Source: Gammaproteobacteria bacterium (lineage in GTDB: Bacteria; Pseudomonadota; Gammaproteobacteria; Natronospirales; REEB76). Taken from it: a stretch of 64,000 nucleotides of DNA. Within the stretch, counting starts at the first letter, position 1; every line of letters begins with the position of its first letter. The stretch covers positions 18,535 to 82,534 of the forward strand of contig JBOIBB010000014.1 in the NCBI GenBank assembly GCA_050739335.1, given 5' to 3'. A program made the translations under genes and the position numbers. The notes beneath the pieces were generated by a model. That model was given only the letters and a program-made list of their open reading frames with translations, was not told the origin of the DNA and did not search any database. Shown here in pieces: positions 16,224-61,408 of the stretch.

Positions 16224-16234
16224 AGGTTGTGAAC

Positions 16235-16651: not shown

Positions 16652-16735
16652 AGCGCGTACCCCAAGTCAGGATTGGATGTGGATTATTTTACCGTGGGGT
16701 CAGCCCGTAACGGCACAGTCCCGGCTGCGTGCCGT

Positions 16736-18951: not shown

Positions 18952-18997
18952 GGATGTCCGCCTGGTTGTAGGAGAGGATAGCAGGGCGGTACCGCGC

Positions 18998-20791: not shown

Positions 20792-21138
20792 TAGCGATAT
20801 GTGCTCAATCCATCCGCCCGGCGCAGTGCACTTGGGGCCTCCGGGGCATTCTGTAGGTCGGGTTCCCGACGTCACTGGTATTATTCAATGCGCGATTGAT
20901 GTTCATATTATTAACATGTGCAGCTTCAGGTTGGAAGTGCGGCGATTAGCGAGGTGTTCGTGTGAAAGCGCACCTCATGAAGGGATTAACCTCTTGGCGT
21001 TCTTGCCGGCACTCGGCTCGCAGAAAAGATATGGTTGGCCGGGTATACGCCGCTCGCTAAGGCTTGGTGAGCTGGAAATTACTCGGTGCAACAGTTTCTC
21101 GCTTGCTTGGCGGGAAGCCTGCACGGCACGACTGCGAG

Positions 21139-22890
21139 CTAAAGCGAATAGCCGAAGCGCTTTACCCATGGGTGCAGCGTGTCCAGGCTTGCGCCGAAGT
21201 ATTCGCGGTAGCGCTGCCAGCGGTCCACGGCCCGCGCATTGACCGGTTGCACGATTTGGGCATAACTCGGGGTGTACACGCGCGCTCGCGCACCTGGCGG
21301 TCTTTCGCGATCAGGTCTCGACGCGGCAGCGTCGAGCCCGAGAAATGCACAGGCAGCACTCAACTCACGATTCGGGTCGATCACCAGGCGCTCGTAACGC
21401 AGCTCGTACACATCAAGCTCAAGGATCTCGCGGTAGCGCAGCCAGAGCTCCATCACGCGCCGGTAGATCTGCGTCGAAGACTCCAGATCCAGGAAGTTTC
21501 CCGTGATGGAACTGCCGTTGAAGGATTGCATGAAGCAGGAGAGCACCACGTCGCAAGGGTGACGCAATGCGAAAACGAAAGCGGCAGCGGGCAACAGGGC
21601 GTGCACATATCCGGCTTGGGCCGACATCAGCGGATGCTTGTCGAGTATCAACGCCGGCGCGGCGGTGGTTCCGAGGCATGCATGTACGGCCTGCCAATAA
21701 TCGCTACGCAGCGTCTGCCAAGCTGCAGGCGCTAACCCGGCGAGTGCGGCCGGATAAGCAGGTTGCGCGGCGCGCAGCCGGTTCAGGGTGTTTTCCAGAC
21801 AGGGCTCTTCCTCGAGCACCGCCAATCCACGGCGCGTACCGAGGAGCGTATCCATGAGCGTGGTGCCGGCACGCAAAAAGCCCACCAGGAACGCGACGGG
21901 TGGCTCGTTCATGGCACGTTGCGCCGCGCGGGTCTTGGCGATCCAGGTCTTTACCCAGTCGGCCGTGAACAGCTCCAATAGACTGTCGAGTTCATGCAAA
22001 TAAGCACGTGCCGTGTCTGCCAGCCAGGGTTGAGCCTCCAGCGAAAGATGATTGGCCTCATCGAAACAGCGGTACGCGGCCGGTGTGTCGCCGAGGGTGT
22101 CGTAGTTGTAGCCCAACTCGAACAGCATGTCGCGGCGGGTACCGGCCGGTAGCTCGGGGCGCGACAGTATCGGCTCCAGCCGCCCGACAGCCGCCGCCGA
22201 ATCGCCCTGGCGGCGCAGAAGCTTGGCTACGGTGGCGTTCAAGGCCGGGTGGGCGGGCGCGAGAGTCAGGCCCGCATCCGCCGCTGCGGCGGCTTCCTCG
22301 GTCCGGTTGGCCTGCTCCAGCAGCACCGCAAGGTTCGACCAGACCGCGGGATTGCGCGCATCCAGGGCGAGCGACTGGCGATAGGCCTCGATTGCCGCGT
22401 CGGCCTTGCGCTGCTTGTCGAGAGCAATCCCCAAGTTGTTGTAGATGTGGGCGTCGCGCGGACTGCGGCTGAGCGCCTTGCGGTAACACTCGACGGCGGC
22501 GTCGACCTTGCCGAGCTCTTTGCAGCATATTCCGAGATTGTTGAGGAGCCCGCTGTCACCGGGGTAGGTGCGCAACGCCCGGTCAAAACACGGCGCGGCT
22601 TCGGCCCAATGCTCAAGCTGCATCTGTGCGTTGCCGAGTGCGCGCTGGATGTCGGGATTGCGGTCATCCAGATGCGCGGCACGGTCGAGGTAGGTAAGCG
22701 CTTCCTCTGGACGATTATCATCGAGCGCTGCACCGCCCACGAGATACAGCGCACCGGCATGTGCACCGTATTGCTGTAATAAATTTTGCGCGAGCTGCAC
22801 CGCGGCCGGATGGTCACCCGCTTGGTAGGCTTGCACCGCTCGTGCGAACAGGTCTGCAGCCGTCGCCGCGCTCTGGCTCGAATTACTCAT
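21139..22890 (-). CDS. TPR-repeat sulfotransferase family protein (paralogue 3, more divergent)
   Basis: TPR repeats are followed by FLVGFLRAGTTLMDTLL and ALRHPCDVVLSCF, with a C-terminal DRWQRYREYF like the other two paralogues. Confidence 0.75.
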   Translation of the reverse strand: MSNSSQSAATAADLFARAVQAYQAGDHPAAVQLAQNLLQQYGAHAGALYLVGGAALDDNRPEEALTYLDRAAHLDDRNPDIQRALGNAQMQLEHWAEAAPCFDRALRTYPGDSGLLNNLGICCKELGKVDAAVECYRKALSRSPRDAHIYNNLGIALDKQRKADAAIEAYRQSLALDARNPAVWSNLAVLLEQANRTEEAAAAADAGLTLAPAHPALNATVAKLLRRQGDSAAAVGRLEPILSRPELPAGTRRDMLFELGYNYDTLGDTPAAYRCFDEANHLSLEAQPWLADTARAYLHELDSLLELFTADWVKTWIAKTRAAQRAMNEPPVAFLVGFLRAGTTLMDTLLGTRRGLAVLEEEPCLENTLNRLRAAQPAYPAALAGLAPAAWQTLRSDYWQAVHACLGTTAAPALILDKHPLMSAQAGYVHALLPAAAFVFALRHPCDVVLSCFMQSFNGSSITGNFLDLESSTQIYRRVMELWLRYREILELDVYELRYERLVIDPNRELSAACAFLGLDAAASRPDRERPPGARARVYTPSYAQIVQPVNARAVDRWQRYREYFGASLDTLHPWVKRFGYSL

Positions 22891-22937
22891 GACGCCTGCT
22901 ACGCCGGCGGCCGCCCGGACGCAGCGTTGACGACCCT

Positions 22938-24278
22938 TCAGGCGCCGTGGCCGCTCGGAGTTCCACGATTGATTGCCGCCAGTGCTGCCACCAGCGCGGT
23001 CACGCCGTCACATTCCGCGGCGCTCAGCAACGGATTCCAGATCTCCGTGATCAGCACCACACGGCGTTCCTGGCTGCGATTCCAGGCTTCGTGCTGAAAG
23101 CTGTCGTCAAAAATCAAACATTGTCCGGCGGACCAGCCCCGGGTCTCGTGACCAACACGGATAGCGCAGTCTTGCGGAACGACCAGCGGCAGGTGCACCA
23201 CAAGCTTGTAGTTGCCGAGCCCGTAATGGGACGGAATGTGCGTGCCCGGCCGGAGAATGGAAAAGAATGCCTCCGGTGTGTGCCCGGGAATTTGTGGCAG
23301 CGGGAGCTGGCCGAGCGCTTGCATGGTGGCGGGGCAACGCGCGGCATTGTCATTCTGTATCTTCCCGCCGCGCAGCAGATGAAACGAGTTCCATTGCGAC
23401 GAGTGGTTAAGCTCGCGCCACTGCTGTGGGTCCGTGCGTACATCAATGTCGACGTAGGGCTCGAGGCCGGCCTCGCTGGCCAACACCGCTTCGGCCTCGG
23501 CGAGTATCGCCGCGGTACAAGCTTCAAGCGCAGGTGCCCAAGCGAACTGGGTGCGTTCGAAAAAAGGACGCGGTTCGATGCCGGGCACGTACAAATACGC
23601 TGGGCGCTGCAAGGCATGGGCATAGCCGGGCGCGCCCGGTCCGCCGGCCAGCAGGCTGGCGGCGGCCTGGATGTTCACCAGCGCAGCGTCGCCATGCCGC
23701 TGCGTGACGGGCTCCAAGTGTTGTGCGGTTATCGCGTTTATGTGCTCGCGCACAAAGTCTACCGCGTGCGTAAGCATTTCGCGGATTGGCGCCGGCGTGG
23801 ATGAATCGCGCAGAGTCTCGGCGGCGGGCGGTTGCATGCAAGCCAGCGCCTGACGGTAGCTGGCGAGTGCTTCGGGCTCGCGCCCGAGCTTGTCCAGCAG
23901 TGCGCCCTGGTGCAGTAGCGCGACCACATAGCCGGGCTGCAGTGCAATGGCACGATTGAAGGCTTCGAGCGCCTGCTCCGCGAGCCCTTGGGCGCGATAC
24001 ACGATGCCGAGATTCTGGTAGAGCATCGCGCGCTTCGGATCCACCTGCACGGCACGTTTCAGGAGCTCCTGGCTTTGCGCAGCATCGCCACGCTCGAAGG
24101 CGCGCATCGCGAGAAACATGAGCGCCTGCAGGTGATAGGGCGCCGCATCCAGCAGCTTGCGATAGATCGTTTCAGCCGCGGTTTTGTCACCCCGGTGGGC
24201 AAGAGCCGTGGCACTGTCCGCGAGCATCGCGATCTGATTTGCGGCCTCGGGAGTGGAGTTGGGCATTGAAAATCGCAC
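22938..24278 (-). CDS. TPR-repeat aspartyl/asparaginyl beta-hydroxylase family (2OG/Fe(II) oxygenase) protein
   Basis: An N-terminal TPR region is followed by a C-terminal segment, ILRPGTHIPSHYGLGNYKLVVHLPLVVP...CLIFDDSFQHEAWNRS, typical of the AspH/LpxO-type Asp_Arg_Hydrox domain. Confidence 0.8.
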   Translation of the reverse strand: MRFSMPNSTPEAANQIAMLADSATALAHRGDKTAAETIYRKLLDAAPYHLQALMFLAMRAFERGDAAQSQELLKRAVQVDPKRAMLYQNLGIVYRAQGLAEQALEAFNRAIALQPGYVVALLHQGALLDKLGREPEALASYRQALACMQPPAAETLRDSSTPAPIREMLTHAVDFVREHINAITAQHLEPVTQRHGDAALVNIQAAASLLAGGPGAPGYAHALQRPAYLYVPGIEPRPFFERTQFAWAPALEACTAAILAEAEAVLASEAGLEPYVDIDVRTDPQQWRELNHSSQWNSFHLLRGGKIQNDNAARCPATMQALGQLPLPQIPGHTPEAFFSILRPGTHIPSHYGLGNYKLVVHLPLVVPQDCAIRVGHETRGWSAGQCLIFDDSFQHEAWNRSQERRVVLITEIWNPLLSAAECDGVTALVAALAAINRGTPSGHGA

Positions 24279-43635: not shown

Positions 43636-44988
43636 ATGGAACGGCCACTCACACACAACTGGCGTCCCGATAGCTGGCAGACACACGATGCCGGACAGCA
43701 ACCGCTTTACGCCGACAACTCAGCGGTGCAACGTGTGCTCGCGGCGATCCACCAATTACCGCCGCTGGTGAGTTGGGGCGAAATCGACAACCTGCGCCGC
43801 CAACTCGCGGAAGCCGGGCGCGGTGAACGCTTCGTGCTGCAGGGCGGAGATTGCGCCGAGAGCTTCGACGATTGCACCGGTGTGCCGATCGCCAACAAAC
43901 TCAAAATCCTGCTGCAGATGAGCCTGGTGTTGGTGCACGGACTCAAGAAACGCGTGATTCGGGTGGGGCGCATCGCCGGGCAGTATGCCAAGCCGCGCTC
44001 CGCCGACATGGAAACCCGCGATGGCGTGACACTGCCCAGTTACCGCGGCGATATCATCAACCACGCGGGGTTCTCCGCCGCCGAGCGCGAGGCGGACCCG
44101 GCGCTGCTGCTGCGCGGCTACGAGTACGCCGCGCTCACGCTTAATTACGTGCGCGCGCTGATCGACGGCGGTTTTGCCGATCTGCATCATCCGGAACTCT
44201 GGGACTTGGATTTCGTGGGCAACTCGCCGCTCGCGGCCGAGTATCACCGCATCGTGCAGTCGATCCTGGATTCCCTGGGTTTCATGGAGTCGATCGCGGG
44301 TGGTGCCTCGGCGAACAGCCACGGCGTGGACTTTTTCACCAGTCACGAAGGCCTGCATCTTCTGTATGAGCAGGCCCAGACCCAGTTCGTGAGCGAGGCC
44401 GGGCGCTGGTACAACCTGTCCACGCATTTCCCGTGGATCGGCATGCGTACCGCCGACGTGACCGCAGCGCACGTCGAATACTTCCGCGGCATCGCCAACC
44501 CCGTGGCCGTCAAGGTGGGGCCGGGCATGACACCGGACAGCTTGCTGGCGCTCTGTGAGATGTTGAATCCGGACAACGAACTTGGGCGGCTCACTTTGAT
44601 CCACCGCTTTGGAGCACGCCGCATTCACGACCGCTTGCCGGAATTGATTGCCGCCGTACGCCGGCGCGGCAAGCAGGTGCTGTGGATTTGCGATCCAATG
44701 CATGGCAACACGGAGACCACGGCGAGCGGCCTCAAGACACGGCGTTTCGAAAACATTCTCGAGGAACTGGAGGCGGCCTTTGCGCTGCATGCCGAGCTCG
44801 GCAGCGTGCTCGCGGGTGTGCATTTCGAACTTACCGGCGAAGATGTCACCGAGTGCACCGGCGGCGCTTGTGGCCTGACCGACACCGATCTCGAACGGGC
44901 TTACAAATCGCATGTGGATCCGCGCCTCAATTACGAACAGGCGCTGGAGATGGCCATGCGCATCGCAGCACGCAAAGGCCGCCGCTAG
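43636..44988 (+). CDS. Class II 3-deoxy-7-phosphoheptulonate (DAHP) synthase
   Basis: The protein is 450 aa with an N-terminus W.P.SW...A.QQP.Y and the motif GQYAKPRS, both typical of plant-like class II DAHPS. Confidence 0.85.
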
Positions 44989-49578: not shown

Positions 49579-49654
49579 GCGGGAATAGCTCAGTTGGTAG
49601 AGCGCAACCTTGCCAAGGTTGAGGTCGCGAGTTCGAGCCTCGTTTCCCGCTCCA
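49579..49654 (+). tRNA. tRNA-Gly (anticodon GCC), CCA encoded
   Basis: The sequence is GCGGGAATAGCTCAGTTGGTAGAGCGCAACCTTGCCAAGGTTGAGGTCGCGAGTTCGAGCCTCGTTTCCCGCTCCA. The anticodon loop is TTGCCAA. Confidence 0.95.
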
Positions 49655-49765: not shown

Positions 49766-49836
49766 GGCTAGGTGGCAGAGTGGTCATGCAGCGGCCTGCA
49801 AAGCCGTGTACGCCGGTTCGATTCCGACCCTAGCCT
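49766..49836 (+). tRNA. tRNA-Cys (anticodon GCA), no encoded CCA, one C.A mismatch in the T stem
   Basis: The sequence is GGCTAGGTGGCAGAGTGGTCATGCAGCGGCCTGCAAAGCCGTGTACGCCGGTTCGATTCCGACCCTAGCCT. It has a perfect 7-bp acceptor stem, anticodon loop CTGCAAA and discriminator U. It is followed by CGC rather than CCA. Confidence 0.85.
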
Positions 49837-49917
49837 CGCAGGTGTGCGATGTGTCCGCCGCGGTGGCGGCACTGGCATCAACAGGGAGTTGCAGTTTGGA
49901 GTTGCAATCCTAGTCCT

Positions 49918-52900
49918 ATGTATCTCTCGGTCCTCGGATCGCATGCCAGGATACACGGTACCGTCGAGGTGCCGAACTCCAAATACCATGCCCACCGTGC
50001 GTTGATCCTCGCCTCACTCGCCGACGGCGTGAGCCGCATCACCGGCCTCACCGACGCCCGTCATGTGCAATACACGATTCGCGTGCTGCGCACGCTTGGC
50101 ATTGACATCGAAATACGCCACGACACCTTCGTGGTGCACGGCGGCCGGTATCGCCCGCGCCGCAGCAGTGTCTCGGCAGGCAGCTCCGGCACCACTTTGT
50201 ATTTCATGCTGGGCCTCGCGGCACTCGCCGAAACCGACGTGATCGTGACGGGGCAGAAGTATTTCCAGCGCCGCCCGGTCGGCCCGTTGCTCGCGGCACT
50301 GCGGCAGATGGGCGTCGGGGTGAGCTCGGGCACGGACTGCCCGCCGTTCGCGGTGAAAGCCCGGCGGCCGCTCGGCGGCGAAGTGCACATCCCGGGAACC
50401 TTGTCACAGTGGATCTCGGGGCTGATCTTGCTCGCGCCGTTCGCCACGCACGCGACCACGGTTATCGTGGATGGCCCGTTCAACGAGCGCAATTACGTGG
50501 CGCTGACGGTGCGCATGATGCGCAGCTTCGGCCTCGAGGTCACCGCCAGCGCCGATGGCCGGCGCTACACGATTGCACCGGATCAGCGTGCGCATCCCGC
50601 GGACCTCGTGATCCCTCCGGACATCGGCTCGGCGGCATTCGGTGTGGCCGCCGCGGCCATGCATCCTGCGGATGTGCTGTTGCATGGTTTGCGTTGCGCG
50701 CGCGCCGCCGAGGTCGACCATCCGGAAGCCGGCTTCCTCGACATTGCCGCGGCCATGGGTCTGCCGATGCAGGTCGATGCGCGCGCCGGCGGTCTGCGCA
50801 TCGTGCACTCGGGCGTGCGGCTCAAGCCGGTGACCGTCGACTGCCGCGATCTGCCGGATATGCTGCCGGTGCTCTCCGGCATGGCGTGTTTCGCCGACGG
50901 CGAAACGGTATTCACCAACGTCGAACACGTGCGGCTCAAGGAATCCGACCGCGTAACCTCGATGCTGCAACTGAACAGCATGGGCGGCGACGTCGACTTC
51001 GACGGTTCGAGTCTGCGCGTACGTGGAGTGCACGCATTGCACGGGGCGGACCTCTCGAGCTTCAACGACCACCGCGTACTCATGTCGCTTGCGGTAACCG
51101 CTTCGGCCGCTGAAGGCCGCAGCACCTTGACCTATCCGAATGCCTACCGGATTTCCTATCCGCGCTTTCTCGAAGCCATGCATACCTTCGGACTCGACAT
51201 GCAGGTGGAGAAACAGCGACTCGCGGCGCACAGCGGCAAACCCAGCCGTCCGCTCATCGAGGACCAAGAGGCGGTGGAACGTGCGGCCGGGGTAACCGGC
51301 GAGGCCTGGGTACGGCGCTGGGCGAAAGAAAAACCCGACGAAGTCGCGGTCGCGGAGGCGCGGCCCGAGACCACGAGGTATATGACCTGGGCCGAACTCG
51401 ATGCGCGTGCCGACCGGGTGGCGGCGCTGCTGCTCACGCTCGGCGTCGGCGCCAAAGACCGGGTCGCGATCCAGCTCCCCAACTGGTCGGAGTTCGTCGC
51501 CATTACGGTGGGCGCGATGCGCATCGGTGCGGTCGTCTGCCCCATCATGCCGATTTTCCGTGAACGTGAAGTCGCGTTTGCGCTGTTCCGTTCGCGCGCG
51601 AAGATCTTCATCTTGCCCGAAGAGTTCCGCGGCCGACGCCATGCCGAGGAGGCCGCCGGGGCACTGGCCAAAACCCAGTCGGGAGGCAGCCGTCACCTTG
51701 GCCTCACCGACGTGTGTGTGATCGGCAACCGGCGCGCCAGTCAATCCTTGGCCGCCAGCACCGCGGTGCGCTGGCATGACTGGGACGCCGAGCTCGAAGC
51801 GGTGTCGGTCGATCGTTCCGCCATCGACGCGCGCCGCCCGCGGGCTGAAGGTCCAGCGCAGCTGCTGTTCACTTCCGGCACTTCGGGGGAGCCGAAGGGC
51901 GTTATCCACACACATGCGACACTCTCACGGGCGGCCGCGATGGAAGTACGGCACCTGGGGCTCGGCCAACACGAAGTGATCTACGTGCCTTCGCCGCTTG
52001 CCCATCAGACGGGATTTCTCTACGGCATGTGGCTCGCCTTTACGCTCGGTGCACCACAACTGTTGCAGCCGGTATGGGACGCGGAGCGTGCGCTCAACGT
52101 GCTGCGCGGCTGGAAAGGCACGTTCGTGCAGGCCGCCACCCCGTTTCTCACGGATCTGGTGAAGGCGGTCGAGGCGGGCGCCGCACCCGCGCCCAGCCTG
52201 CGCATTTTCGTCGCCACCGGCGCGGCTGTACCACGCACGCTCGCGGAACGCGCAACCCGCGTGCTCGGCACCGCCGTTTGTGGTGCGTTCGGAACCACCG
52301 AGACCTGTCTCGGCGCCCTGGCCGCACCCGGCGACGCGCCGGTCAAGGTTTGGGGCACCGATGGGCGCGCGCTTGCGGGTGTCGAACTGCGGATCGTGGA
52401 CGAGCACGGCAAACGCCTGGCGCCCGGCGCCGAGGGTAACCTCGAGCTCAAAAGCGGCACGATGTTTGCGGGCTACCTCGATCGTCCGGACCTGACGCCG
52501 GCGGCCTTCACGGCCGACGGCTGGTACCGCACCGGCGATCTCGCCACCCTCGACGAAGAAGGTTTTCTGCGCATTACCGGCCGGGTGCGCGATGTCATCA
52601 ACCGCGGTGGCGAGAAAATCCCGGTAGCGGAAATCGAGGAGCTCTTGTATCGTCATCCGGACATCGAAGACGTAGCGGTCGTTGCCATGCCGGACGCGCG
52701 TCTGGGCGAGCGCGGCTGTGCCTTCGTGGTGTCCCGCAAGAGTAGTGCACTCACGTTTGCCGGCATGCAGCAATACCTCGATGCGCACCACGTATCGAAA
52801 CACTACTGGCCGGAACGTCTCGAACTGATCGACGTGATCCCGCGCAACGCCGTCGGCAAGATCCAGAAATTCGTGCTACGCGAACGCGCCAAGAATCTCG

Positions 52901-52938
52901 TAAGCCAGCGCCAAGCTGCCAAACAGGAGAACCATTGA
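49918..52938 (+). CDS. Fusion protein: an N-terminal EPSP-synthase-like enolpyruvyl-transferase-fold domain and a C-terminal AMP-forming acyl-CoA synthetase
   Basis: The N-domain carries VPNSKYHAHRAL, QRRPVGPLL, LSQWISGLILLAP, DLPDMLPVL, RLKESDRV and NDHRVLMSL, which correspond to the EPSPS blocks PGSKSxSNR, ERP, SSQ, D313, KETDR and DHRMAM. The C-domain carries LLFTSGTSGEPKGVIHTH, GAFGTTE, YRTGDL, GRVRDVINRGGEKI and PRNAVGKIQK. The start is set at ATG 49918 (MYLSVLGS..). Confidence 0.85.
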   Translation: MYLSVLGSHARIHGTVEVPNSKYHAHRALILASLADGVSRITGLTDARHVQYTIRVLRTLGIDIEIRHDTFVVHGGRYRPRRSSVSAGSSGTTLYFMLGLAALAETDVIVTGQKYFQRRPVGPLLAALRQMGVGVSSGTDCPPFAVKARRPLGGEVHIPGTLSQWISGLILLAPFATHATTVIVDGPFNERNYVALTVRMMRSFGLEVTASADGRRYTIAPDQRAHPADLVIPPDIGSAAFGVAAAAMHPADVLLHGLRCARAAEVDHPEAGFLDIAAAMGLPMQVDARAGGLRIVHSGVRLKPVTVDCRDLPDMLPVLSGMACFADGETVFTNVEHVRLKESDRVTSMLQLNSMGGDVDFDGSSLRVRGVHALHGADLSSFNDHRVLMSLAVTASAAEGRSTLTYPNAYRISYPRFLEAMHTFGLDMQVEKQRLAAHSGKPSRPLIEDQEAVERAAGVTGEAWVRRWAKEKPDEVAVAEARPETTRYMTWAELDARADRVAALLLTLGVGAKDRVAIQLPNWSEFVAITVGAMRIGAVVCPIMPIFREREVAFALFRSRAKIFILPEEFRGRRHAEEAAGALAKTQSGGSRHLGLTDVCVIGNRRASQSLAASTAVRWHDWDAELEAVSVDRSAIDARRPRAEGPAQLLFTSGTSGEPKGVIHTHATLSRAAAMEVRHLGLGQHEVIYVPSPLAHQTGFLYGMWLAFTLGAPQLLQPVWDAERALNVLRGWKGTFVQAATPFLTDLVKAVEAGAAPAPSLRIFVATGAAVPRTLAERATRVLGTAVCGAFGTTETCLGALAAPGDAPVKVWGTDGRALAGVELRIVDEHGKRLAPGAEGNLELKSGTMFAGYLDRPDLTPAAFTADGWYRTGDLATLDEEGFLRITGRVRDVINRGGEKIPVAEIEELLYRHPDIEDVAVVAMPDARLGERGCAFVVSRKSSALTFAGMQQYLDAHHVSKHYWPERLELIDVIPRNAVGKIQKFVLRERAKNLVSQRQAAKQENH

Positions 52939-54134
52939 TGGTCACGATCAGCCCCGACGGACGTGGCAGCGAACTCGACCCGGACCGCTACCAGGCGCTG
53001 CTGGCCGAAGTCACCGCTTGGGTCACCGCACCCGGCGAACAATGGGCCGAACGCATCGAGTCCTCGACGGCACTGGTGCCCGAGGAGCTCTGGGACGAGC
53101 TCAAGCAGCGCGGTTACCTGTCGCTCGCGGCACCGGTGGAACTCGGCGGACGTGGCTTGAGCTTCGTCCAGTGGATGGGCTTGATGGAAGTATTTTCGCG
53201 CTCGCATGCCTCGATCCGCATGATCGTGCACGTGGTAAACGGCACTTGGCGCGCCATGAATCCTTTTGCCAATGCGGCCCAGCGCCAGCAATTCGTGCGC
53301 CGCTCGATCGCGGGTGACATTAAGATCGCCTTCACCCTGACCGAACCCGACAACGGTACCGGCGCGGACCTGACCTGCCAGGTACGCCGCGATGGCGAGC
53401 GCTATCTGCTGACCGGCAAGAAACATCTCATCACCTTCGGCTTGCGCTGTGATTACTGGCTGCTGTTCGCGCGCCTCCAGGGCAGCAAGGGCAAGGACGG
53501 CACCTTGGCTCTGCTCGTTGACCGGCACGCACCCGGCGTGCGCACCGAGGACACCTCGGCGTCCATGGGTGTGCATGGCACGGATCATGCTGCGTTATTC
53601 TTCACCGACACGCCGGTGCCGGTCGCGCAGCGGCTCGGCCGCGAGGGCGATGGACTCACGGTGGCACTCGGCGGTTTCCTTACGCCGAGCCGTATCTCGG
53701 TCGCGATGAGTTGCGTGGGTCTGGCCGAGCGTGCCCAGGAACTCGCAATTGATTACGCACTCAAGCGCGTGACCTTCGGCCAACCGCTCGGCACGCGCCA
53801 AGCCATTGCCTTCATGATTGCCGAGAATGCCGCGGACATTGCCGCGAGCCGGGCGCTCACTCTCGAGGCCGCGCGCTGTTGGCAGGCCGGCGAGGAACGT
53901 GCCAGTGCGCTTTCGTCGATGGCCAAGATGACCGCGGTCGACATGCTCACGCGCGTGACCGACAAGGCACTGCAAATACACGGCGGCCGGGGTTATATGC
54001 GCACCCACAGAATCGAGCGTGTCTATCGCGACGCACGAGCCCAGCGATTTGAAGAAGGCACCAACGAAATCCAGAAAACCGTCGTGGCCCGGGAGATTCT
54101 TGCCCGCGCTGCGCGTCACAAGGACTCACAATGA
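52938..54134 (+). CDS. Acyl-CoA dehydrogenase family protein
   Basis: The ~398-aa ACAD architecture ends in the C-terminal motif RIERVYRDARAQRFEEGTNEIQ. An AGGAGA RBS lies 7 nt upstream, and the ATG overlaps the upstream TGA by 1 nt. Confidence 0.85.
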   Translation: MVTISPDGRGSELDPDRYQALLAEVTAWVTAPGEQWAERIESSTALVPEELWDELKQRGYLSLAAPVELGGRGLSFVQWMGLMEVFSRSHASIRMIVHVVNGTWRAMNPFANAAQRQQFVRRSIAGDIKIAFTLTEPDNGTGADLTCQVRRDGERYLLTGKKHLITFGLRCDYWLLFARLQGSKGKDGTLALLVDRHAPGVRTEDTSASMGVHGTDHAALFFTDTPVPVAQRLGREGDGLTVALGGFLTPSRISVAMSCVGLAERAQELAIDYALKRVTFGQPLGTRQAIAFMIAENAADIAASRALTLEAARCWQAGEERASALSSMAKMTAVDMLTRVTDKALQIHGGRGYMRTHRIERVYRDARAQRFEEGTNEIQKTVVAREILARAARHKDSQ

Positions 54135-54940
54135 GCAGCAAAGTGGCGGTGATCACGGGTGCGTCGCGCGGTATTGGCGCACGCGTGGCTGAGATGCTCG
54201 CGGCCGAGGGTGCCGCGGTCGTGGTCAATTACAAAAAAAACGCGGAGCTCGCCGAGCAGATCGTGGCCAAACTGCGCACCTTGGGCGGTGACGGCGTCAC
54301 CGTTCAGGCCGATGTGGAAAACCCCGATGAAGTGCGGCGTATCTTCGACGTGGCCGCCGAAAAATACGGACGTCTCGACTATTTCGTCAACAACGCCGCC
54401 GCCGCGGCCTTCAAGCGCATCCTCGACCTGAAGCCGAACCATCTGGACCGTTCCTACGCGATGAACCTGCGCCCGTTCGTGCTTGGCGCCCAGGAAGCCG
54501 TCAAGCTCATGGACCGGGGCGGACGGATCGTGGCGCTCACCAGCTACGGCAGCTTGCATGCGTACCCAACCTATGCGGCACTCGGTTCGTACAAAGCCGC
54601 CATCGAGAGCTTTATCCGCTACATGGCGGTGGAATTTGCGCCTTACGGTATCAATGTCAACGGTGTGAGTGGCGGCTTGATCGAGTCGGACTCCTTGCAC
54701 TATTTCTACGAACGTGTGCCCGGGCAGGCACCTATGCAGTCGGTACTCGTGAAAATCCCGCTGCAACGGCCCGGTACGGTCGACGAGATGGCGCACGCCG
54801 TCATGTTTCTGCTCGGCGACAAGTCGAGCTATATCACCGGGCAGACGCTGGTGGTCGATGGCGGACTGTCGGTGATCGCACCGCCGTTTTGGTCCGAAAC
54901 CCACGCGCCACTGAGTCTCCCCGAGCGTCCGCACCGCTGA
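54131..54940 (+). CDS. SDR-family enoyl-thioester reductase-like protein (FabL/ChcA-like)
   Basis: The cofactor motif is VITGASRGIGARV and NNAA is present. The active-site spacing is Y-x6-K (YAALGSYK), as in FabI/FabL enoyl reductases, rather than the classical YxxxK. The start overlaps the upstream stop (ATGA). Confidence 0.8.
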   Translation: MSSKVAVITGASRGIGARVAEMLAAEGAAVVVNYKKNAELAEQIVAKLRTLGGDGVTVQADVENPDEVRRIFDVAAEKYGRLDYFVNNAAAAAFKRILDLKPNHLDRSYAMNLRPFVLGAQEAVKLMDRGGRIVALTSYGSLHAYPTYAALGSYKAAIESFIRYMAVEFAPYGINVNGVSGGLIESDSLHYFYERVPGQAPMQSVLVKIPLQRPGTVDEMAHAVMFLLGDKSSYITGQTLVVDGGLSVIAPPFWSETHAPLSLPERPHR

Positions 54941-54947
54941 GCTTGAG

Positions 54948-57020
54948 ATGCTCGAGCATGTGTTCAGGCCGGCAGCGATCGGCGGCCTCGCGCTCCGCCA
55001 CCGCATCGTCGTGGGCTCGATGCATTTGAACCTCGAGACCGCCGGTGACGGCTCGGCCCTCGCGGCGTTCTACGTCGAGCGCGTGCAGGGCGGCGCGGAC
55101 CTCGTAGTCACTGGCGGCATCGCCGTGAACCGGGCCGGAGCGGGAAGCCGCGGTTACGCGGTGCTGACCAAAGCAAAAGACCGCAGGCGGCTCGCGCATG
55201 TTGCCCAGGCGGTGCACGCCGCGGGCGGCCACATCGCCTTGCAGCTCTTTCACGCCGGCCGTTACGCATTCCATGAAGCTTTTGGCATAACGCCCCGTGC
55301 ACCTTCCGCCGTTTATAGCCGCTTCTCGCGCTGTCTGCCCCAGGCTATGAGCGTCGACGAAATCAACGCGACCATCGCGGATTTCGCCGCCGGTGCACAA
55401 GCTGCACGCGAGCTTGGCTTCGATGCCGTGGAAATCATGGGTTCCGAAGGCTATCTCATCAATCAATTCGCCTCGCCGGTGACAAATTTGCGCACCGACG
55501 ATTGGGGCGGCTCAGCCGAGGCGCGCCGACGCTTCCCCCTGGCGGTGTTGGCGGCGGTGCGCGCCGCCGTGGGCGCGAATTTCCCGGTCATCGCCCGCAC
55601 ATCCGGCAATGACTTGATGCAAGATTCCTCCACTGGGCAGGAGCTCGATGTGCTCACCGTAGCCTTGGCGGAAAGTGGGGCCGACGCGATCAACGTAGGC
55701 ATCGGCTGGCACGAGTCGCATACGCCCTCGGTACAGGCGCTAGTGCCACATGGCATGTGGATCTCAACCGCTGCGCGCATGCGCAGGGCGCTGCGTGCGG
55801 CCGGCTCACCGATACCCGTCATCGGCTCGAACCGCATCAATTCGCTGATACAGGCCGAAGAGTTCCTGGCCGCCGACGCCATTGACTTGGTGTCGATGGC
55901 GCGGCCGTTCCTCGCCGACTCCGCAATCATTGCGAAGTCGCGCACCGGACAGTTCAATTTCGTCGACACCTGCATCGGCTGCAACCAGGCATGCATCGAC
56001 CGCTCGTTTGGCAGCGAACGCGTTTCCTGCCTGGTGAACCCGCGTGCCGGACACGAACTCGAATTCCCACTGGTAACCGCGGCGGGGCAGGCCACACGTG
56101 TCGCGGTGGTAGGCTCGGGTCCGGCGGGTATACAGGCCGCGGCCACGCTCGCGGTCCACGGCATCGCCGTCGACCTATACGAGAGCGAGGCGGGAATCGG
56201 CGGGCAGTTCCGCCTGGCGTGCCAAGTCCCCGGCAAGGCCGATTACGGCGAAACCATCCGTTATTTCCGTCACGAACTCGAGCGGCTTGGCGTTACGGTA
56301 CGGACCCGGGTGCGGGCGACGGTAGAACAGCTCGGCACTTACGCACACGTGATCGTGGCCTGCGGCGTCACACCGCGGCGCGTGGACATTCCGGGCGCCG
56401 ATCTGCCGCAAGTCATTTCGTACCGCGAAGCTTTCGATCGGGCGTCTACGCTTGGATCGCGTGTCGCCATCATCGGCGCGGGCGGCATCGCCATCGATCT
56501 CGCCGAACTGCTGGTGCATCCCGATGACACCGAACTCGACGGTGCCGACGCGCGCCGCAGGTTTGCCGAAGATCACGGACTGGTACCCGTGGACGCTGCC
56601 CACGTACGGACGCAGCGCGCGGTACCGCAGGTCACACTCATGCGCCGCTCGGGCAAGATCGGAGCCGGTATCGGGCCCTCGACCCGGTGGGCCGTGCTTG
56701 CGTCGATTCGTTCAGCAGGCGTCAAAACTTTCACCGGAGTGGAGTACCGGCGAATTACCCACGAGGGTGTTTGGATTGTGCCGCCACCGACAGAAACTGC
56801 TGCGATCCCTCAAGAAACTTTGGTTGCCGCCGATCAGGTAGTAATCGCCGCCGGTCAGGTACCCGACGACCATTTGGCCAAAGAACTGGATCGTGCCGGT
56901 ATCGCAAATACGGTAATCGGCGGTGCCCGTGACACCTCGGGCCTCAATGCCGTACGGGCGTTTGACGAGGGCTTGCGCTGCGCAGCCGCACTTGCCGCGA
57001 GGCTCAACCAGCGAAATTGA
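54948..57020 (+). CDS. FadH-like 2,4-dienoyl-CoA reductase (OYE TIM barrel, 4Fe-4S cluster, FAD/NAD(P) domains)
   Basis: The 690-aa protein has an OYE-like N-terminus, the Cys cluster motif CIGCNQACIDR...C and two dinucleotide folds (VAVVGSGPAGIQAA, VAIIGAGGIAIDLA). Confidence 0.85.
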   Translation: MLEHVFRPAAIGGLALRHRIVVGSMHLNLETAGDGSALAAFYVERVQGGADLVVTGGIAVNRAGAGSRGYAVLTKAKDRRRLAHVAQAVHAAGGHIALQLFHAGRYAFHEAFGITPRAPSAVYSRFSRCLPQAMSVDEINATIADFAAGAQAARELGFDAVEIMGSEGYLINQFASPVTNLRTDDWGGSAEARRRFPLAVLAAVRAAVGANFPVIARTSGNDLMQDSSTGQELDVLTVALAESGADAINVGIGWHESHTPSVQALVPHGMWISTAARMRRALRAAGSPIPVIGSNRINSLIQAEEFLAADAIDLVSMARPFLADSAIIAKSRTGQFNFVDTCIGCNQACIDRSFGSERVSCLVNPRAGHELEFPLVTAAGQATRVAVVGSGPAGIQAAATLAVHGIAVDLYESEAGIGGQFRLACQVPGKADYGETIRYFRHELERLGVTVRTRVRATVEQLGTYAHVIVACGVTPRRVDIPGADLPQVISYREAFDRASTLGSRVAIIGAGGIAIDLAELLVHPDDTELDGADARRRFAEDHGLVPVDAAHVRTQRAVPQVTLMRRSGKIGAGIGPSTRWAVLASIRSAGVKTFTGVEYRRITHEGVWIVPPPTETAAIPQETLVAADQVVIAAGQVPDDHLAKELDRAGIANTVIGGARDTSGLNAVRAFDEGLRCAAALAARLNQRN

Positions 57021-57283
57021 TCCGCCGGAGTTCCCCAAGCTCGTGCGGGTGGGTATGCCTGCCCTGAGGTCGGCAGCCGTTCGAGCTTCGATGCGTGGAC
57101 GATGCGGCCATGAAACCTCGCGTCGTTCATGCGAAAATTCGCCCTGTGGAGCACGCTCGGTTTTCATCCTTGAGCCCAGCGCGTCTGGGCGCCGGTGGGA
57201 CGCCGCCCGCGACGCGAACGTTGGCGGAATAGGGCGGTCCCCACAGCCAGGATCGATGGCAAAAGTTACGCATATGCATGCAG

Positions 57284-57370
57284 GCCCGGGTGGCGGAACG
57301 GGTAGACGCAAGGGACTTAAAATCCCTTGGCCGCAAGGCCGTGCCGGTTCGAGTCCGGCCCCGGGCACCA
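57284..57370 (+). tRNA. tRNA-Leu (anticodon TAA), long variable arm, CCA encoded
   Basis: The sequence is GCCCGGGTGGCGGAACGGGTAGACGCAAGGGACTTAAAATCCCTTGGCCGCAAGGCCGTGCCGGTTCGAGTCCGGCCCCGGGCACCA. Confidence 0.95.
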
Positions 57371-59700: not shown

Positions 59701-60164
59701 CTCCGGCACGGCGGCGACGGCTGATTATCGTGCTGGTACTCGTGGTGGGTGTGGCCATCGCGGCCACGCTGGGGCTGAAAGCCTTCCGCAAAAACCTCTT
59801 GTACTACTTCACGCCGGAACAAGTGGCGAAGGGCGACGCCCATCCCGGGCAATCGTTTCGCATGGGCGGCCTGGTCGCGATGGGCAGTATTCAGCGTGCG
59901 CCTGGCAGCATGACCGTGCACTTCACGGTCACCGACATGGAACGCTCGATCCCGGTGGTCTACACAGGAATTCTGCCGGACCTGTTCGCGCAGGGGCAGG
60001 GCATCGTCGTCTATGGCACGCTGCAGAAAAACGGCGAGTTTGTCGCCAATCAGGTGCTTGCCAAGCATGACTCCAAATACATGCCGCCGGAAGTCGAAGC
60101 CGACATCAAGAGGGCCAAGGCCGAACAACTCGCCAAGAGCGCCCACGAGGCCAGCGTCGAATAA
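59697..60164 (+). CDS. ccmE: Cytochrome c-type biogenesis heme chaperone CcmE
   Basis: It has an N-terminal anchor (MTPARRRRLIIVLVLVVG) and the heme-binding His motif LAKHDSKYMPPEV. The start is at ATG 59697, not 59574. Confidence 0.9.
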   Translation: MTPARRRRLIIVLVLVVGVAIAATLGLKAFRKNLLYYFTPEQVAKGDAHPGQSFRMGGLVAMGSIQRAPGSMTVHFTVTDMERSIPVVYTGILPDLFAQGQGIVVYGTLQKNGEFVANQVLAKHDSKYMPPEVEADIKRAKAEQLAKSAHEASVE

Positions 60165-61084
60165 ACGCGCCGGTAGTCACGCGGCGTTTTCCCCGTGGCC
60201 TTGCGGAACACCGTCGTGAAGTAGCTGTGCGCACGGAAGCCGCAACGGCGCACGATACCGTTGATCGGCGTCGCGGTCCGGGTGAGGAGGTGCTTGGCGA
60301 GATCCAGGCGGTGCTCGAGCACATACTCGCGCGGCGAGAGCCCGATCTTGCGTTTGAAGCAGCGGTGAAAATGAAAACGGCTGAGGTGCGCGGCACACGC
60401 CATGTCTTCCAGAGGCAGATCCCGATCCAGATGTTCGTGGATGTACACGATGGCCTTGCCGAGATTGGAATCCAAGCTGCCGGCATCGGCATAGTGGGGC
60501 GCCTGCGGTTCCTGGAAATAGACTTCGGCAAGATGGCTCACGAGCAACATGGTGAAGGACTGCAGGTAACCGGGGCTCGCATCGTTGCCACCGTTCGTCA
60601 GCACCCCGGCAATCCGCCGGCCAATTTGCGCAATGAGCGGATCATTGAACACAACATTGTCGAGCACACCGCGGCGCGGTACCACGAACTTCATGCTTTG
60701 TTCGGTTTCGCGCAGATACGCACTGCTGATATGCAGTTGAATCAATTCAATCGGTCCGTCCCACTGCCAAGTGACAGCCCGATTGGCCGGCACGACGGAG
60801 ACTGCTCCGGAGAACAGCAAGGCCGTATCCTGGTATTCGGCCAGCCCCCGGGTAAGCCGCACACCGTCGCCGGACAGCACCACCGTGACACACGGATCGG
60901 GAATCGCCGGCAGACTGGCACGGCCAGCCGGCATGCGGTACACCCGTGCGGTTGTGGAAATCCAGTGCGGGAAAATCCCGGTACTGGAGTAAACCGGCAG
61001 GTTCGGCATGTAGCGTTCCAGACAAGAGCTCTGGACCATACCCGGAATTTTCCCGGCCGGCTTGTTAGGTTCAAAAACGTGCAT
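60050..61084 (-). CDS. AraC-family transcriptional regulator with a cupin-like N-terminal domain
   Basis: The C-terminal double HTH is AAHLSRFHFHRCFKRKIGLSPREYVLEHRL...RCGFRAHSYFTTVFRKATGKTPRDYRR. The start is set at ATG 61084. The first in-frame stop is at 60050, so the 3' end runs 115 nt antisense into ccmE. Confidence 0.8.
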   Translation of the reverse strand: MHVFEPNKPAGKIPGMVQSSCLERYMPNLPVYSSTGIFPHWISTTARVYRMPAGRASLPAIPDPCVTVVLSGDGVRLTRGLAEYQDTALLFSGAVSVVPANRAVTWQWDGPIELIQLHISSAYLRETEQSMKFVVPRRGVLDNVVFNDPLIAQIGRRIAGVLTNGGNDASPGYLQSFTMLLVSHLAEVYFQEPQAPHYADAGSLDSNLGKAIVYIHEHLDRDLPLEDMACAAHLSRFHFHRCFKRKIGLSPREYVLEHRLDLAKHLLTRTATPINGIVRRCGFRAHSYFTTVFRKATGKTPRDYRRVYSTLASWALLASCSALALLMSASTSGGMYLESCLAST

Positions 61085-61408
61085 GGCTTCACCCCGACGC
61101 GATCCTGTGGCAGAACTACCCAAAGCGGCTCAAGTCTAGCAGGTTCTAGTTGTCTGCAAACCAGCCCCAAAGTGATGGCTCGAGGTCCAGGCTTGCGCCG
61201 TTGCGCCCTGCATGGTCGCCATCCGCAGCTGCTGTACTGGCGGCGCGCACGTACCGAATCCCGGTGCAAATCCGCGGCCCGGCACATCACGCACGCCGTG
61301 CATCATGGTGTGCCCCAGTCGAATTGAGTACAATCCCGCCGCAGTTTTTTCGTGCGGCGTGAGCAGCGCAAGGGCCGCCGCAGCGACGCGGCATTCACGG
61401 CAGTCTCC

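Follow-up and report, generated by a model that had tools for sequence, protein, structure and literature searches.

The insertion and its genes

The 64-kb stretch of gammaproteobacterial DNA analysed here (the window) carries four genes between the tRNA-Cys and tRNA-Leu genes of a tRNA Gly-Cys-Leu cluster. The features of the locus are as follows.

49579-49654, + strand: tRNA-Gly(gcc), found by ARAGORN and Rfam; native backbone, with the same sequence in relatives
49766-49837, + strand: tRNA-Cys(gca), found by ARAGORN and Rfam; native, left border of the insertion site
49857-49875, + strand: decayed 19-nt copy of the tRNA-Leu 5′ end, GCCGCGGTGGCGGCACTGG; left-junction scar or attL-like repeat
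49918-52938, + strand: gene 1, EPSP-synthase-like domain fused to an AMP ligase; 1006 aa from the ATG at 49918, in a reading frame open from 49849
52938-54134, + strand: gene 2, acyl-CoA dehydrogenase-family flavoprotein (PlmL/PnP2 type); three Acyl-CoA_dh Pfam domains
54131-54940, + strand: gene 3, SDR enoyl-reductase (ChcA/PnP3 type); Pfam adh_short_C2
54948-57020, + strand: gene 4, FadH-like FMN/4Fe-4S/FAD dienoyl-CoA reductase (PlmM/PnP4 type); Pfam Oxidored_FMN and Pyr_redox_2
57021-57283, + strand: non-coding tail of the insert, 263 nt; no assigned feature
57284-57370, + strand: tRNA-Leu(taa), found by ARAGORN and Rfam; intact, right border

The original prediction from this DNA described one tight operon encoding five enzyme functions in four genes, and both the junctions and the Pfam domains agree with it. 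The open reading frames between the two tRNA genes occupy 49849-52938, 52935-54134, 54131-54940 and 54948-57020. Genes 1 and 2 meet in TGATG, where one base is common to stop and start (the ATG of gene 2 is at 52938), genes 2 and 3 meet in ATGA, and 7 nt separate genes 3 and 4. GGAG-type ribosome-binding sites precede genes 2 and 3; no promoter consensus was recognised upstream of gene 1. In the 263-nt tail we found no Rfam family, no promoter or terminator consensus and nothing resembling the flanks of other copies.

The start of gene 1 was taken from the annotation of a database protein from a metagenome-assembled genome (MAG; P0001), to which the fused protein is 100% identical. Its Pfam domains are EPSP_synthase, AMP-binding and AMP-binding_C, with the EPSP-synthase-like N-terminal domain at approximately 49945-51180 and the AMP-forming acyl-CoA ligase domain, which is C-terminal, at approximately 51313-52860. 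The acyl-CoA dehydrogenase homologue keeps the catalytic Glu motif FEEGT. The SDR has a Yx6K motif, and FabL is its top match in both NCBIfam and the PDB. The FadH-like protein matches E. coli 2,4-dienoyl-CoA reductase (1ps9, E = 1e-144), and its Cys342, 345, 349 and 361 make up a 4Fe-4S cluster motif. As predicted, the large ORFs in the remainder of the window include no PKS, NRPS, (enoyl-CoA) hydratase, thiolase or ring-opening hydrolase, and no ketosynthase; no ACP, FabH or DAHP synthase was found in the window either.

The flanks of the operon are conserved. Upstream lie icd, uvrY/gacA, uvrC and pgsA, and downstream ccmA, B, C, E and F. The E. coli chromosome has the expected order uvrY-uvrC-pgsA-tRNA-Gly-tRNA-Cys-tRNA-Leu with a Cys-Leu gap of 12 nt, whereas the distance in the window is 7446 nt, in line with the 7.4 kb first proposed. 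We then compared the four closest readable relatives, ranked by UvrC (75-82% identity; L082, L083, L085 and L086). In all four the insert is absent: the gap is 16-21 nt and is followed by ccmA. The window tRNA-Cys aligns to theirs, and native sequence restarts directly 3′ of tRNA-Leu, the alignment to L082 running past the 3′ end of that gene. The 7.4-kb region is thus a true insertion and is not universally present at this tRNA locus.

The left junction retains a trace of the event. The 19-nt remnant starts 19 nt past tRNA-Cys, where the tRNA-Leu of the relatives begins (16-21 nt), and has three mismatches to the tRNA-Leu start of L085. Matches as good as this are expected 0.08 times per window.

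Relationship to actinobacterial CHC-CoA genes

Over its full length, the fused protein is 59% identical to a Streptomyces platensis protein (P0277), and it is 61% identical to P0251 of S. flaveolus, an ansatrienin producer. The acyl-CoA dehydrogenase homologue, the SDR and the FadH-like protein have full-length identities of 65%, 67% and 53%, respectively, to genes neighbouring the first in S. platensis, where the counterparts have the same order and directly follow a type I PKS. We take these S. platensis genes to be plmJK-plmL-chcA-plmM because their layout matches that tabulated for phoslactomycin, in which plmJK is the fused ligase, plmL an acyl-CoA dehydrogenase, ChcA the cyclohexenylcarbonyl-CoA reductase and plmM an NADH:FMN oxidoreductase (Table 2 of PMC5852498). 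Similarly, the asukamycin genes asuB1-B4 are described as serving cyclohexylcarbonyl-CoA formation (PMC12720273). The resemblance to a cyclohexanecarboxyl-CoA (CHC-CoA) cassette, first proposed at the level of enzyme families, therefore now extends to sequence. Judged by alignment and gene order, the window operon is the orthologue of plmJK-plmL-chcA-plmM; ansJ/K-L-chcA-M and asuB1-4 are the equivalents of that set. The fused protein is presumed to be a PlmJK/PnP1-type shikimoyl-CoA synthetase, the acyl-CoA dehydrogenase homologue the FAD-dependent dehydratase of the CHC-CoA pathway, and the SDR the 1-cyclohexenylcarbonyl-CoA reductase.

Distribution and origin

We found the fused gene at 365 species-level loci, nearly all of which keep the four-gene order. 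Apart from two Rhodanobacteraceae MAGs, the best 80 of the 365 belong to Actinomycetota and Eremiobacterota. The closest sequences are from Rhodanobacteraceae MAGs (73-77% identity for the fused protein, up to 85% for the SDR), and Micrococcales reach 62-68%. In all four gene trees, which are neighbour-joining trees that carry no support values, the window copy groups with a few Rhodanobacteraceae MAG copies in a single clade that lies next to or within Micrococcales. This position points to transfer between phyla, with actinobacterial ancestry of the cassette. The GC3 (0.73-0.78) and codon-usage distance of the cassette are fully host-like, within the range of the backbone (0.75 +/- 0.05), and would therefore require long residence or a similar donor.

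Genes next to other copies bear on the use of the product. A FabF-like ketosynthase (KAS) adjoins the cassette in 51 of the 95 loci with flanks, three other gammaproteobacterial copies (L002, L169 and L171) included. One of these, in a Rhodanobacteraceae MAG (L169), has two ketosynthases, a MaoC dehydratase and a second acyl-CoA ligase. In Eremiobacterota, a DAHP synthase gene is divergent from a unit of KAS, fused gene, acyl-CoA dehydrogenase, SDR and FadH. Stand-alone cassettes of Micrococcaceae lie between tuf and the S10 ribosomal operon and lack a biosynthetic partner. Cellulomonas timonensis SN7 also has a copy (L008), and a cyclohexylundecanoic acid is listed at about 1% in the FAME table published for this strain; the link between the two is weak, since the peak is small and oddly named and this cassette has no SDR.

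Proposed pathway and alternative explanations

We consider it probable that the insert is a self-contained CHC-CoA biosynthetic operon of actinobacterial ancestry, integrated in the 5′ end of tRNA-Leu(UAA). Its pathway is inferred from orthology and conserved motifs, the individual steps being assigned from paper titles, a table in a secondary source and general background. The fused protein would, through its ligase domain, turn host-supplied shikimate into shikimoyl-CoA, from which the acyl-CoA-dehydrogenase-like flavoprotein would strip ring hydroxyls as water. Conjugated dienoyl-CoA intermediates would be reduced by the FadH-like Fe-S flavoenzyme and enoyl-CoA intermediates by the Yx6K SDR, which would finally convert 1-cyclohexenylcarbonyl-CoA to CHC-CoA. 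The double-bond isomerase that is also required may be drawn from host beta-oxidation, as it is in S. collinus.

Because the window has neither a FabF-like ketosynthase nor a DAHP synthase, the fate of the product can be proposed only indirectly and with weaker confidence. Most likely, by analogy with other copies, CHC-CoA would prime fatty-acid-type chain elongation and yield omega-cyclohexyl acyl chains of lipids. To our knowledge, such ring-ended fatty acids come only from a few Gram-positive bacteria; if the proposal is true, an uncultured Gram-negative bacterium may make them as well.

It is rather unlikely that the operon supplies CHC-CoA or a close alicyclic acyl-CoA not to membrane fatty acids but to a specialised metabolite encoded elsewhere, such as a polyketide, a polyene or an acylated product. 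The Streptomyces cassette does serve polyketides: that of S. platensis directly follows its type I PKS, and asukamycin and ansatrienin use it too. The gene set of L169 might just as well form a small type II PKS-like system. However, no PKS, NRPS or KAS accompanies the cassette in the 64 kb, and the partnerless copies beside tuf and S10 in Micrococcaceae are more in keeping with a lipid primer than with a natural-product cluster.

A catabolic role, in which the operon would activate cyclohexanecarboxylate, shikimate/quinate or naphthenic acids and then degrade them in the oxidative direction as Ali/Bad pathways do, is very unlikely. Cyclohexanecarboxylate-CoA ligase is indeed the top NCBIfam match of the ligase domain and the JGI label of some homologues of the fused protein, and beta-oxidation, too, typically employs an acyl-CoA dehydrogenase and a dienoyl-CoA reductase. 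Yet every catabolic equivalog model falls far short of its cut-off (484 bits versus 792 for that ligase; 129 versus 575 and 177 versus 650 for two cyclohexanecarboxyl-CoA dehydrogenase models), and the window has no hydratase, BadH-type 2-hydroxyacyl-CoA dehydrogenase, ring-opening hydrolase or thiolase, and no BadK- or BadI-type gene. Furthermore, the SDR is of the enoyl-reductase type by its motif and FabL match, catabolic systems have no counterpart of the EPSP-synthase-like fusion or of the match, at 53-67% identity, to a biosynthetic cassette linked to a PKS, and Eremiobacterota couple the cassette to DAHP synthase, a supply enzyme. The earlier view that the set does not look Bad/Ali-type is upheld.

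Finally, although the sequence is a MAG contig, tRNA genes are common chimera points, and the insert has no promoter consensus, mobility gene or partner KAS, it is extremely unlikely that the cassette is carried along unexpressed or in decay, or that the join is a metagenome assembly artefact: the four ORFs are intact, tightly joined and conserved in their catalytic motifs, both flanks continue the same syntenic backbone as in relatives, codon usage and GC3 match that backbone, which speaks against a high-GC actinobacterium as chimera partner, and a decayed tRNA-Leu fragment at the left junction is not something an assembler makes.

Comparison with known systems

The CHC-CoA operon that we favour resembles tRNA-gene-targeted genomic islands in its site: the tRNA gene is intact at one end of the insert, and a short piece of it is duplicated at the other. 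In a relative (L081), a P4-type integrase gene follows the corresponding tRNA-Cys. The operon differs in that no integrase or other mobility gene was found inside the insert, which comprises only four genes and 263 nt, and in that the 5′ end of the tRNA is duplicated; in such islands it is usually the 3′ end.

The EPSP-synthase-like domain passes the aroA model (308.9 versus a cut-off of 287.25 bits). In E. coli AroA numbering it keeps K22, R27, G96, T97, R124, S170, Q171, Y200, D313, K340, E341, R344, D384, H385 and R386, but has S23Y, R100Y, S197E, N336H and K411I and has lost S169; several of these changed positions line the phosphate and PEP pockets. Unlike AroA, the domain is joined to a ligase, in an accessory gene that is absent at this site in close relatives. 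Public records label the whole fusion '3-phosphoshikimate 1-carboxyvinyltransferase', which is misleading.

In the Ali/Bad route (AliA, AliB, BadK, BadH, BadI), a cyclohexane ring acid is likewise first handled by a CoA ligase and an acyl-CoA dehydrogenase, and the top family match of the window ligase domain is AliA-like. The window operon, however, scores well under the family cut-offs, lacks the later enzymes of that route (hydratase, hydroxyacyl-CoA dehydrogenase, ring hydrolase), and adds the EPSP-synthase-like domain, the enoyl reductase and the dienoyl reductase.

Cassettes of Micrococcales, Eremiobacterota and Rhodanobacteraceae have the four-gene order of the window. Among other gammaproteobacterial copies, none lies at a tRNA gene, and L002, L169 and L171 have a dedicated KAS that the window copy does not. 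The ans genes of S. collinus (ansJ-ansK-ansL-chcA-ansM) and asuB1-B4 match the window cassette in enzyme families and in assigned product, cyclohexylcarbonyl-CoA from shikimate, for which work by Cropp and colleagues in 2000 is also cited. In S. collinus, however, ansJ and ansK are two distinct genes, whereas the window gene is fused.

Most similar is the phoslactomycin/lactomycin set plmJK-plmL-chcA-plmM (pnP1-P4) of S. platensis, with the same four proteins, order and EPSP-synthase-like/ligase fusion. Those genes form part of a type I PKS cluster that also has a LAL regulator, with a DAHP synthase close by, whereas the window cassette sits by itself in a gammaproteobacterial chromosome, flanked by two tRNA genes, and the 64 kb contain no PKS. 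Both the fusion and the pathway were previously known in Streptomyces; what is new is the host and the context, not the chemistry.

A four-gene insertion in the tRNA Gly-Cys-Leu cluster

The cassette lies in a 7446-nt interval between the tRNA-Cys and tRNA-Leu genes, which is filled by four plus-strand open reading frames (ORFs).

Features of the tRNA cluster and the cassette (window coordinates)
49579-49654, plus strand, tRNA-Gly(gcc), found by ARAGORN and Rfam
49766-49837, plus strand, tRNA-Cys(gca), found by ARAGORN and Rfam
49849-52938, plus strand, ORF 1, the fused gene; start at the ATG at 49918, from the identical protein P0001
52935-54134, plus strand, ORF 2, acyl-CoA dehydrogenase (ACAD); ATG at 52938, from the TGATG junction
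54131-54940, plus strand, ORF 3, SDR; ORF call
54948-57020, plus strand, ORF 4, FadH-like; ORF call
57284-57370, plus strand, tRNA-Leu(taa), found by ARAGORN and Rfam

The 1006-aa fused protein, to which the database entry P0001 (1006 aa, 'MAG: Gammaproteobacteria bacterium') is identical, contains the Pfam domains EPSP_synthase, AMP-binding and AMP-binding_C. The second gene encodes the N-terminal, M and C-terminal Acyl-CoA_dh domains, the third adh_short_C2, and the fourth Oxidored_FMN and Pyr_redox_2. The genes are joined by TGATG, by ATGA and then by a 7-nt gap. Both flanks are backbone, with class II DAHP synthase, icd, uvrY/gacA, uvrC and pgsA on the 5′ side and ccmA, B, C, E and F on the 3′ side. 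In the E. coli chromosome, the order is uvrY-uvrC-pgsA-tRNA-Gly-tRNA-Cys-tRNA-Leu, and the last two are spaced by 12 nt. The original prediction of an E. coli-like backbone, a Cys-Leu separation of 7.4 kb, these same junctions and five enzyme functions in four genes is thus borne out by the E. coli comparison, the tRNA searches, the sequence and the Pfam content, respectively. The class II DAHP synthase gene (43636-44988) is 5 kb upstream of the cassette. Since this gene belongs to the backbone and is also found in cassette-free relatives, its nearness to a shikimate-consuming operon is coincidental.

The cassette had also been proposed to be an insertion, as opposed to a universal occupant of this tRNA locus, and comparison with relatives agrees. 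Judged by UvrC, the window's relatives are all uncultured Gammaproteobacteria, with at most 84% identity. The synteny icd-uvrY-uvrC-pgsA ... ccmA-H is kept in four of their loci, L082 (UvrC 79%), L086 (81%), L085 (82%) and L083 (75%), and in each of these tRNA-Leu starts 16-21 nt past tRNA-Cys, i.e., the site is empty. The insertion of the cassette in a gammaproteobacterial tRNA cluster is therefore real. The tRNA-Cys genes themselves vary: that of the window has no encoded 3′ CCA (…GCCTCGC at 49835-49840), nor does that of L085, while CCA is encoded in L082, L083 and L086 (…GCCTCCA).

Using empty-site alignment and a pattern search, we detected a remnant at the left junction. Homology to the empty sites runs through tRNA-Cys and a 19-nt spacer into GCCGCGGTGGCGGCACTGG (49857-49875), where the first 19 nt of tRNA-Leu are repeated in decayed form. 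The repeat matches the L085 tRNA-Leu at 16/19 positions and the window's own at 15/19 (a match as good is expected by chance 0.08 times per window), and it is located exactly where tRNA-Leu starts in the relatives. Native sequence picks up at the intact tRNA-Leu (57284), and the homology extends beyond the tRNA. The simplest reading is that integration took place within the 5′ part of tRNA-Leu and duplicated a short core, the left copy of which would have decayed later. ORF and Pfam analysis found no integrase or transposase in the insert, and a repeat finder detected no long repeats, direct or inverted, at its flanks. Besides the four genes, it contains only a 263-nt tail, in which neither the promoter/terminator scan nor Rfam recognised any feature. 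No usable signal emerged from the same scan for the operon start or for the stretch ahead of tRNA-Leu, and Rfam yielded tRNAs only.

A further relative, L081 (UvrC 79%), has other, AT-richer DNA after tRNA-Cys (12709-13520), the first gene of which encodes a P4-type integrase; there is no tRNA-Leu between tRNA-Cys and the contig end. The site thus serves other elements too, and in this lineage the Gly-Cys-Leu cluster is a hot spot of integration. Two other irregularities occur nearby. In L083, about 1.3 kb (12841-14116), including a 172-aa ORF that belongs to no known family, separates tRNA-Leu from ccmA, a distance of merely ~12-100 nt in the other relatives. In the window, a gene for an AraC-family regulator (60050-61123, minus strand) is situated between ccmE and ccmF, which directly follow each other in L082, L083 and L086. 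About 3 kb from the cassette, this gene represents a second insertion specific to the lineage, and it has no homologue near any other cassette copy.

The encoded enzymes match cyclohexanecarboxyl-CoA cassettes

A profile search seeded with Streptomyces homologues returned the fused protein of S. platensis, S. kronopolitis, S. flaveolus and S. rishiriensis. The first two are phoslactomycin producers (PMC7496768, PMC5852498), and S. flaveolus produces ansatrienin (PMC13304725). According to the called genes (the Streptomyces loci have ~72% GC), the S. platensis locus L087 encodes a type I polyketide synthase (PKS), the EPSP_synthase/AMP-binding fusion, ACAD, SDR, an Oxidored_FMN/Pyr_redox_2 protein and a LAL-type regulator, past which a DAHP synthase is encoded further along. 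This is the layout of the phoslactomycin/lactomycin clusters (PMC5852498, Table 2): PKS (lmB/pnB/plm2-3), plmJK (labelled AMP-dependent synthetase and ligase), plmL (short-chain acyl-CoA dehydrogenase), ChcA (cyclohexenylcarbonyl-CoA reductase), plmM (NADH:FMN oxidoreductase) and a regulator. The asukamycin cluster likewise has cyclohexylcarbonyl-CoA genes, asuB1-B4 (PMC12720273). Over essentially their full length, and in the same order, the four proteins of the window share 59, 65, 67 and 53% identity with those of S. platensis, and the fused protein is 61% identical to its S. flaveolus counterpart. What had been a suggested likeness to the cyclohexanecarboxyl-CoA (CHC-CoA) cassette is now a match at the sequence level to PKS-linked genes.

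Key residues are intact in the ACAD (catalytic glutamate, FEEGT), the SDR (enoyl-reductase Yx6K motif, YAALGSYK) and the FadH-like protein (4Fe-4S cysteines C342, C345, C349 and C361). The SDR is nearest to FabL (enoyl-ACP reductase) in the family models, with FabL 3oic in the PDB, and the fourth protein matches E. coli 2,4-dienoyl-CoA reductase (1ps9, E = 1e-144). PDB sequence searches gave generic ligase, AroA, ACAD, FabL and FadH structures only, and none from the CHC-CoA pathway. Together, the comparisons support the interpretation that the operon would make CHC-CoA from shikimate.

The EPSP-synthase-like domain scores 308.9 bits against the aroA equivalog model, narrowly over the cut-off of 287.25. 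In alignment with E. coli AroA, it keeps K22, R27, G96, T97, R124, S170, Q171, Y200, D313, K340, E341, R344, D384, H385 and R386, and its changes are S23Y, R100Y, deletion of S169, S197E, N336H and K411I. In AroA, the 3-phosphate of shikimate-3-phosphate is bound by S169, S197 and N336, while R100 and K411 belong to the PEP site. Given these changes, the pocket may be remodelled for a non-phosphorylated shikimate moiety. A GSSGTTLYFM motif is invariant among 12 Streptomyces members. We rejected housekeeping AroA as the identity of the fused gene, because it is accessory and fused.

Public names of the ~1000-aa fusion (P0001-P0120, P0241-P0319) are nearly all '3-phosphoshikimate 1-carboxyvinyltransferase' (NCBI) or 'cyclohexanecarboxylate-CoA ligase' (JGI), neither of which fits a fused CHC-CoA pathway protein; labelling it as a plain EPSP synthase masks its CHC-CoA role. 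One homologue, P0264, is recorded from Streptomyces avermitilis and is 79% identical to the first sequence of the Streptomyces profile. It could be natural, or could come from an engineered doramectin strain with an introduced CHC-CoA cassette.

Distribution and origin of the cassette

The fused gene occurs at 365 loci in a one-genome-per-species collection. The best 80 of these are from Actinomycetota (Micrococcales and others) and Eremiobacterota (Vulcanimicrobiota), apart from two at 76% in Rhodanobacteraceae MAGs; a scan of a metagenome collection found no copy closer than 66%. The order fus-ACAD-SDR-FadH, where fus is the fused gene, is nearly universal, although the SDR is missing in some Arthrobacter and Cellulomonas copies and FadH in some others. 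In Sinomonas and one Arthrobacter group (Micrococcaceae), a bare cassette, encoded on the opposite strand, separates tuf (str operon) from the S10 ribosomal-protein operon; the Arthrobacter members of this group, like Cellulomonas, have the operon without the SDR gene (tuf/S10 and SDR-less loci: L003-L006, L014, L018, L020-L023, L028-L030, L032, L170). Carriers in culture include Sinomonas humi, Arthrobacter koreensis, Microbacterium sp. STN6 and Cellulomonas cellasea.

In neighbour-joining trees of each of the four proteins (without support values), the window and Rhodanobacteraceae copies form one clade, inside or beside Micrococcales and apart from Streptomyces and Eremiobacterota. The most economical reading of these trees is that the cassette moved from a Micrococcales-like actinobacterium into Gammaproteobacteria. 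Its GC3 (0.73-0.78) and codon-usage distance are within the backbone range (0.75 +/- 0.05), so the transfer was not recent, or not direct; a recent transfer straight from a high-GC actinobacterium is rejected on this ground. None of the other gammaproteobacterial copies is at a tRNA gene: that of L001 follows dnaJ-dapB, and those of L002, L169 and L171 adjoin ketosynthase genes.

Partner genes and the fate of the product

Among the 95 cassette loci flanked by 1.5 kb or more on both sides, 51 have a directly adjacent FabF-like ketosynthase (KAS), which is the largest cluster among the clustered neighbour genes. About 40 loci in Eremiobacterota have a DAHP synthase gene that is transcribed divergently from KAS-fus-ACAD-SDR-FadH, and the KAS is a divergent FabF-like protein (370 bits, under the fabF cut-off). 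In this unit, an enzyme that supplies the shikimate pathway is combined with the cassette and with a condensing enzyme, and the unit predicts alicyclic lipids in a largely uncultured soil phylum. A second KAS type is well conserved (58-79% identity among members) and accompanies the cassette in Streptomyces albus, S. iconiensis, Acidothermus, Microbacterium sp. STN6, L002, L169 and L171. The last three KAS are mutually 70-79% identical and 68-69% identical to that of Microbacterium sp. STN6; L169 additionally encodes a canonical FabF and a MaoC dehydratase, as well as a second acyl-CoA ligase. It seems that this KAS accompanied the cassette in its moves between phyla, but the window lacks it.

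Cassette loci with partner genes (coordinates of each locus)
L034, 7748-17033, Eremiobacterota unit of DAHP synthase, KAS and cassette; also, e.g., L035, L042, L048, L110 and L119
L169, 5104-17410, Rhodanobacteraceae-type copy next to the specific KAS, which spans 16178-17410
L002, 251-1537, Rhodanobacteraceae-type copy next to the specific KAS
L171, 815-2218, Rhodanobacteraceae-type copy next to the specific KAS

CHC-CoA primes omega-cyclohexyl fatty acids in thermoacidophiles. The fatty-acid methyl ester table of Cellulomonas timonensis SN7 lists ~1% of a cyclohexylundecanoic acid (PMC5913061), and the genome of this strain carries the cassette (L008). Cyclohexyl-C17:0 is reported in related Microbacteriaceae (PMC10011130). 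The KAS and DAHP synthase pairings, together with the C. timonensis profile, favour CHC-CoA as a primer of fatty-acid-type elongation. As the window has no partner KAS, the CHC-CoA consumer would be elsewhere in the genome, or would be a host FabH. We tentatively propose, as a possibility that falls short of an even chance, that the acquired operon leads to omega-cyclohexyl acyl chains in gammaproteobacterial lipids, and that the cassette, often with its own KAS and in Eremiobacterota with DAHP synthase, is an omega-cyclohexyl lipid module across Micrococcales, Eremiobacterota and a few Gammaproteobacteria. Within the literature collection searched, no paper connects cyclohexyl lipids with Rhodanobacteraceae or Eremiobacterota, and the omega-cyclohexyl acid citations in a 2026 review all date from 1975-2004.

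Phoslactomycins, ansatrienins, asukamycin and engineered avermectins of the doramectin type also have CHC-CoA as their starter unit. That CHC-CoA starts a specialised metabolite here is an unlikely reading; the window's 64 kb contain no ketosynthase, ACP, PKS or NRPS, in line with the original prediction as regards PKS and NRPS. A catabolic role of the Ali/Bad type is highly improbable. The best family match of the ligase domain is indeed cyclohexanecarboxylate-CoA ligase (TIGR03208), but at 484 bits versus a cut-off of 792, and the ACAD scores 129 versus 575 (TIGR03207) and 177 versus 650 (NF043006) against two cyclohexanecarboxyl-CoA dehydrogenase models. These scores exclude the role at the equivalog level, and neither the insert nor any large ORF of the window encodes a BadK-type hydratase, BadH-type dehydrogenase or BadI-type ring-cleaving hydrolase; we therefore reject this pathway, as the prediction had done. 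The least probable alternative, a dead passenger or an assembly artefact, is opposed by the intactness of the ORFs and motifs, a codon usage resembling that of the host, synteny on either side of the insert and the scar at the junction; the last three also led us to reject an assembly chimera.

Significance and comparison with known systems

The chemistry is not new, since the pathway and the gene fusion are already known from Streptomyces. The novelty lies in the occurrence in an uncultured gammaproteobacterium, in the minimal four-gene form within a tRNA-Leu gene, and in the family-wide association with dedicated ketosynthases and DAHP synthase. The pathway, which is used in biotechnology, passes between phyla as a four-gene unit, in a clear case of cross-phylum transfer, and a copy already codon-adapted to a gammaproteobacterial background may be of use in pathway engineering. 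Alicyclic lipids or metabolites are predicted in unexamined lineages, namely that of the window, Rhodanobacteraceae, Eremiobacterota and many Micrococcales, and the recurrent pairing with a FabF-like KAS and DAHP synthase suggests routes of primer supply and consumption. If the omega-cyclohexyl lipid reading holds, Proteobacteria would have their first case of alicyclic membrane lipid chemistry, and the cassette would be a so far undescribed omega-cyclohexyl lipid module and a gene marker for such soil biomarkers. Separately, an unusual gene cluster with no relation to the cassette lies on the window's minus strand (16736-24278): three TPR-plus-sulfotransferase genes in a row (580, 625 and 583 aa), then a gene of the Asp/Asn beta-hydroxylase family.

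With respect to integrase-mediated tRNA-gene islands, the insert has a decayed tRNA-derived repeat (19 nt) and no integrase gene; L081 has one at this site. The S. platensis cassette adjoins a type I PKS, whereas that of the window has no PKS, KAS or ACP within 64 kb. With the CHC-CoA cassettes in general, it shares the EPSP-synthase-like protein and AMP-forming ligase, fused as in PlmJK, and the order JK-L-ChcA-M with the same enzyme families.
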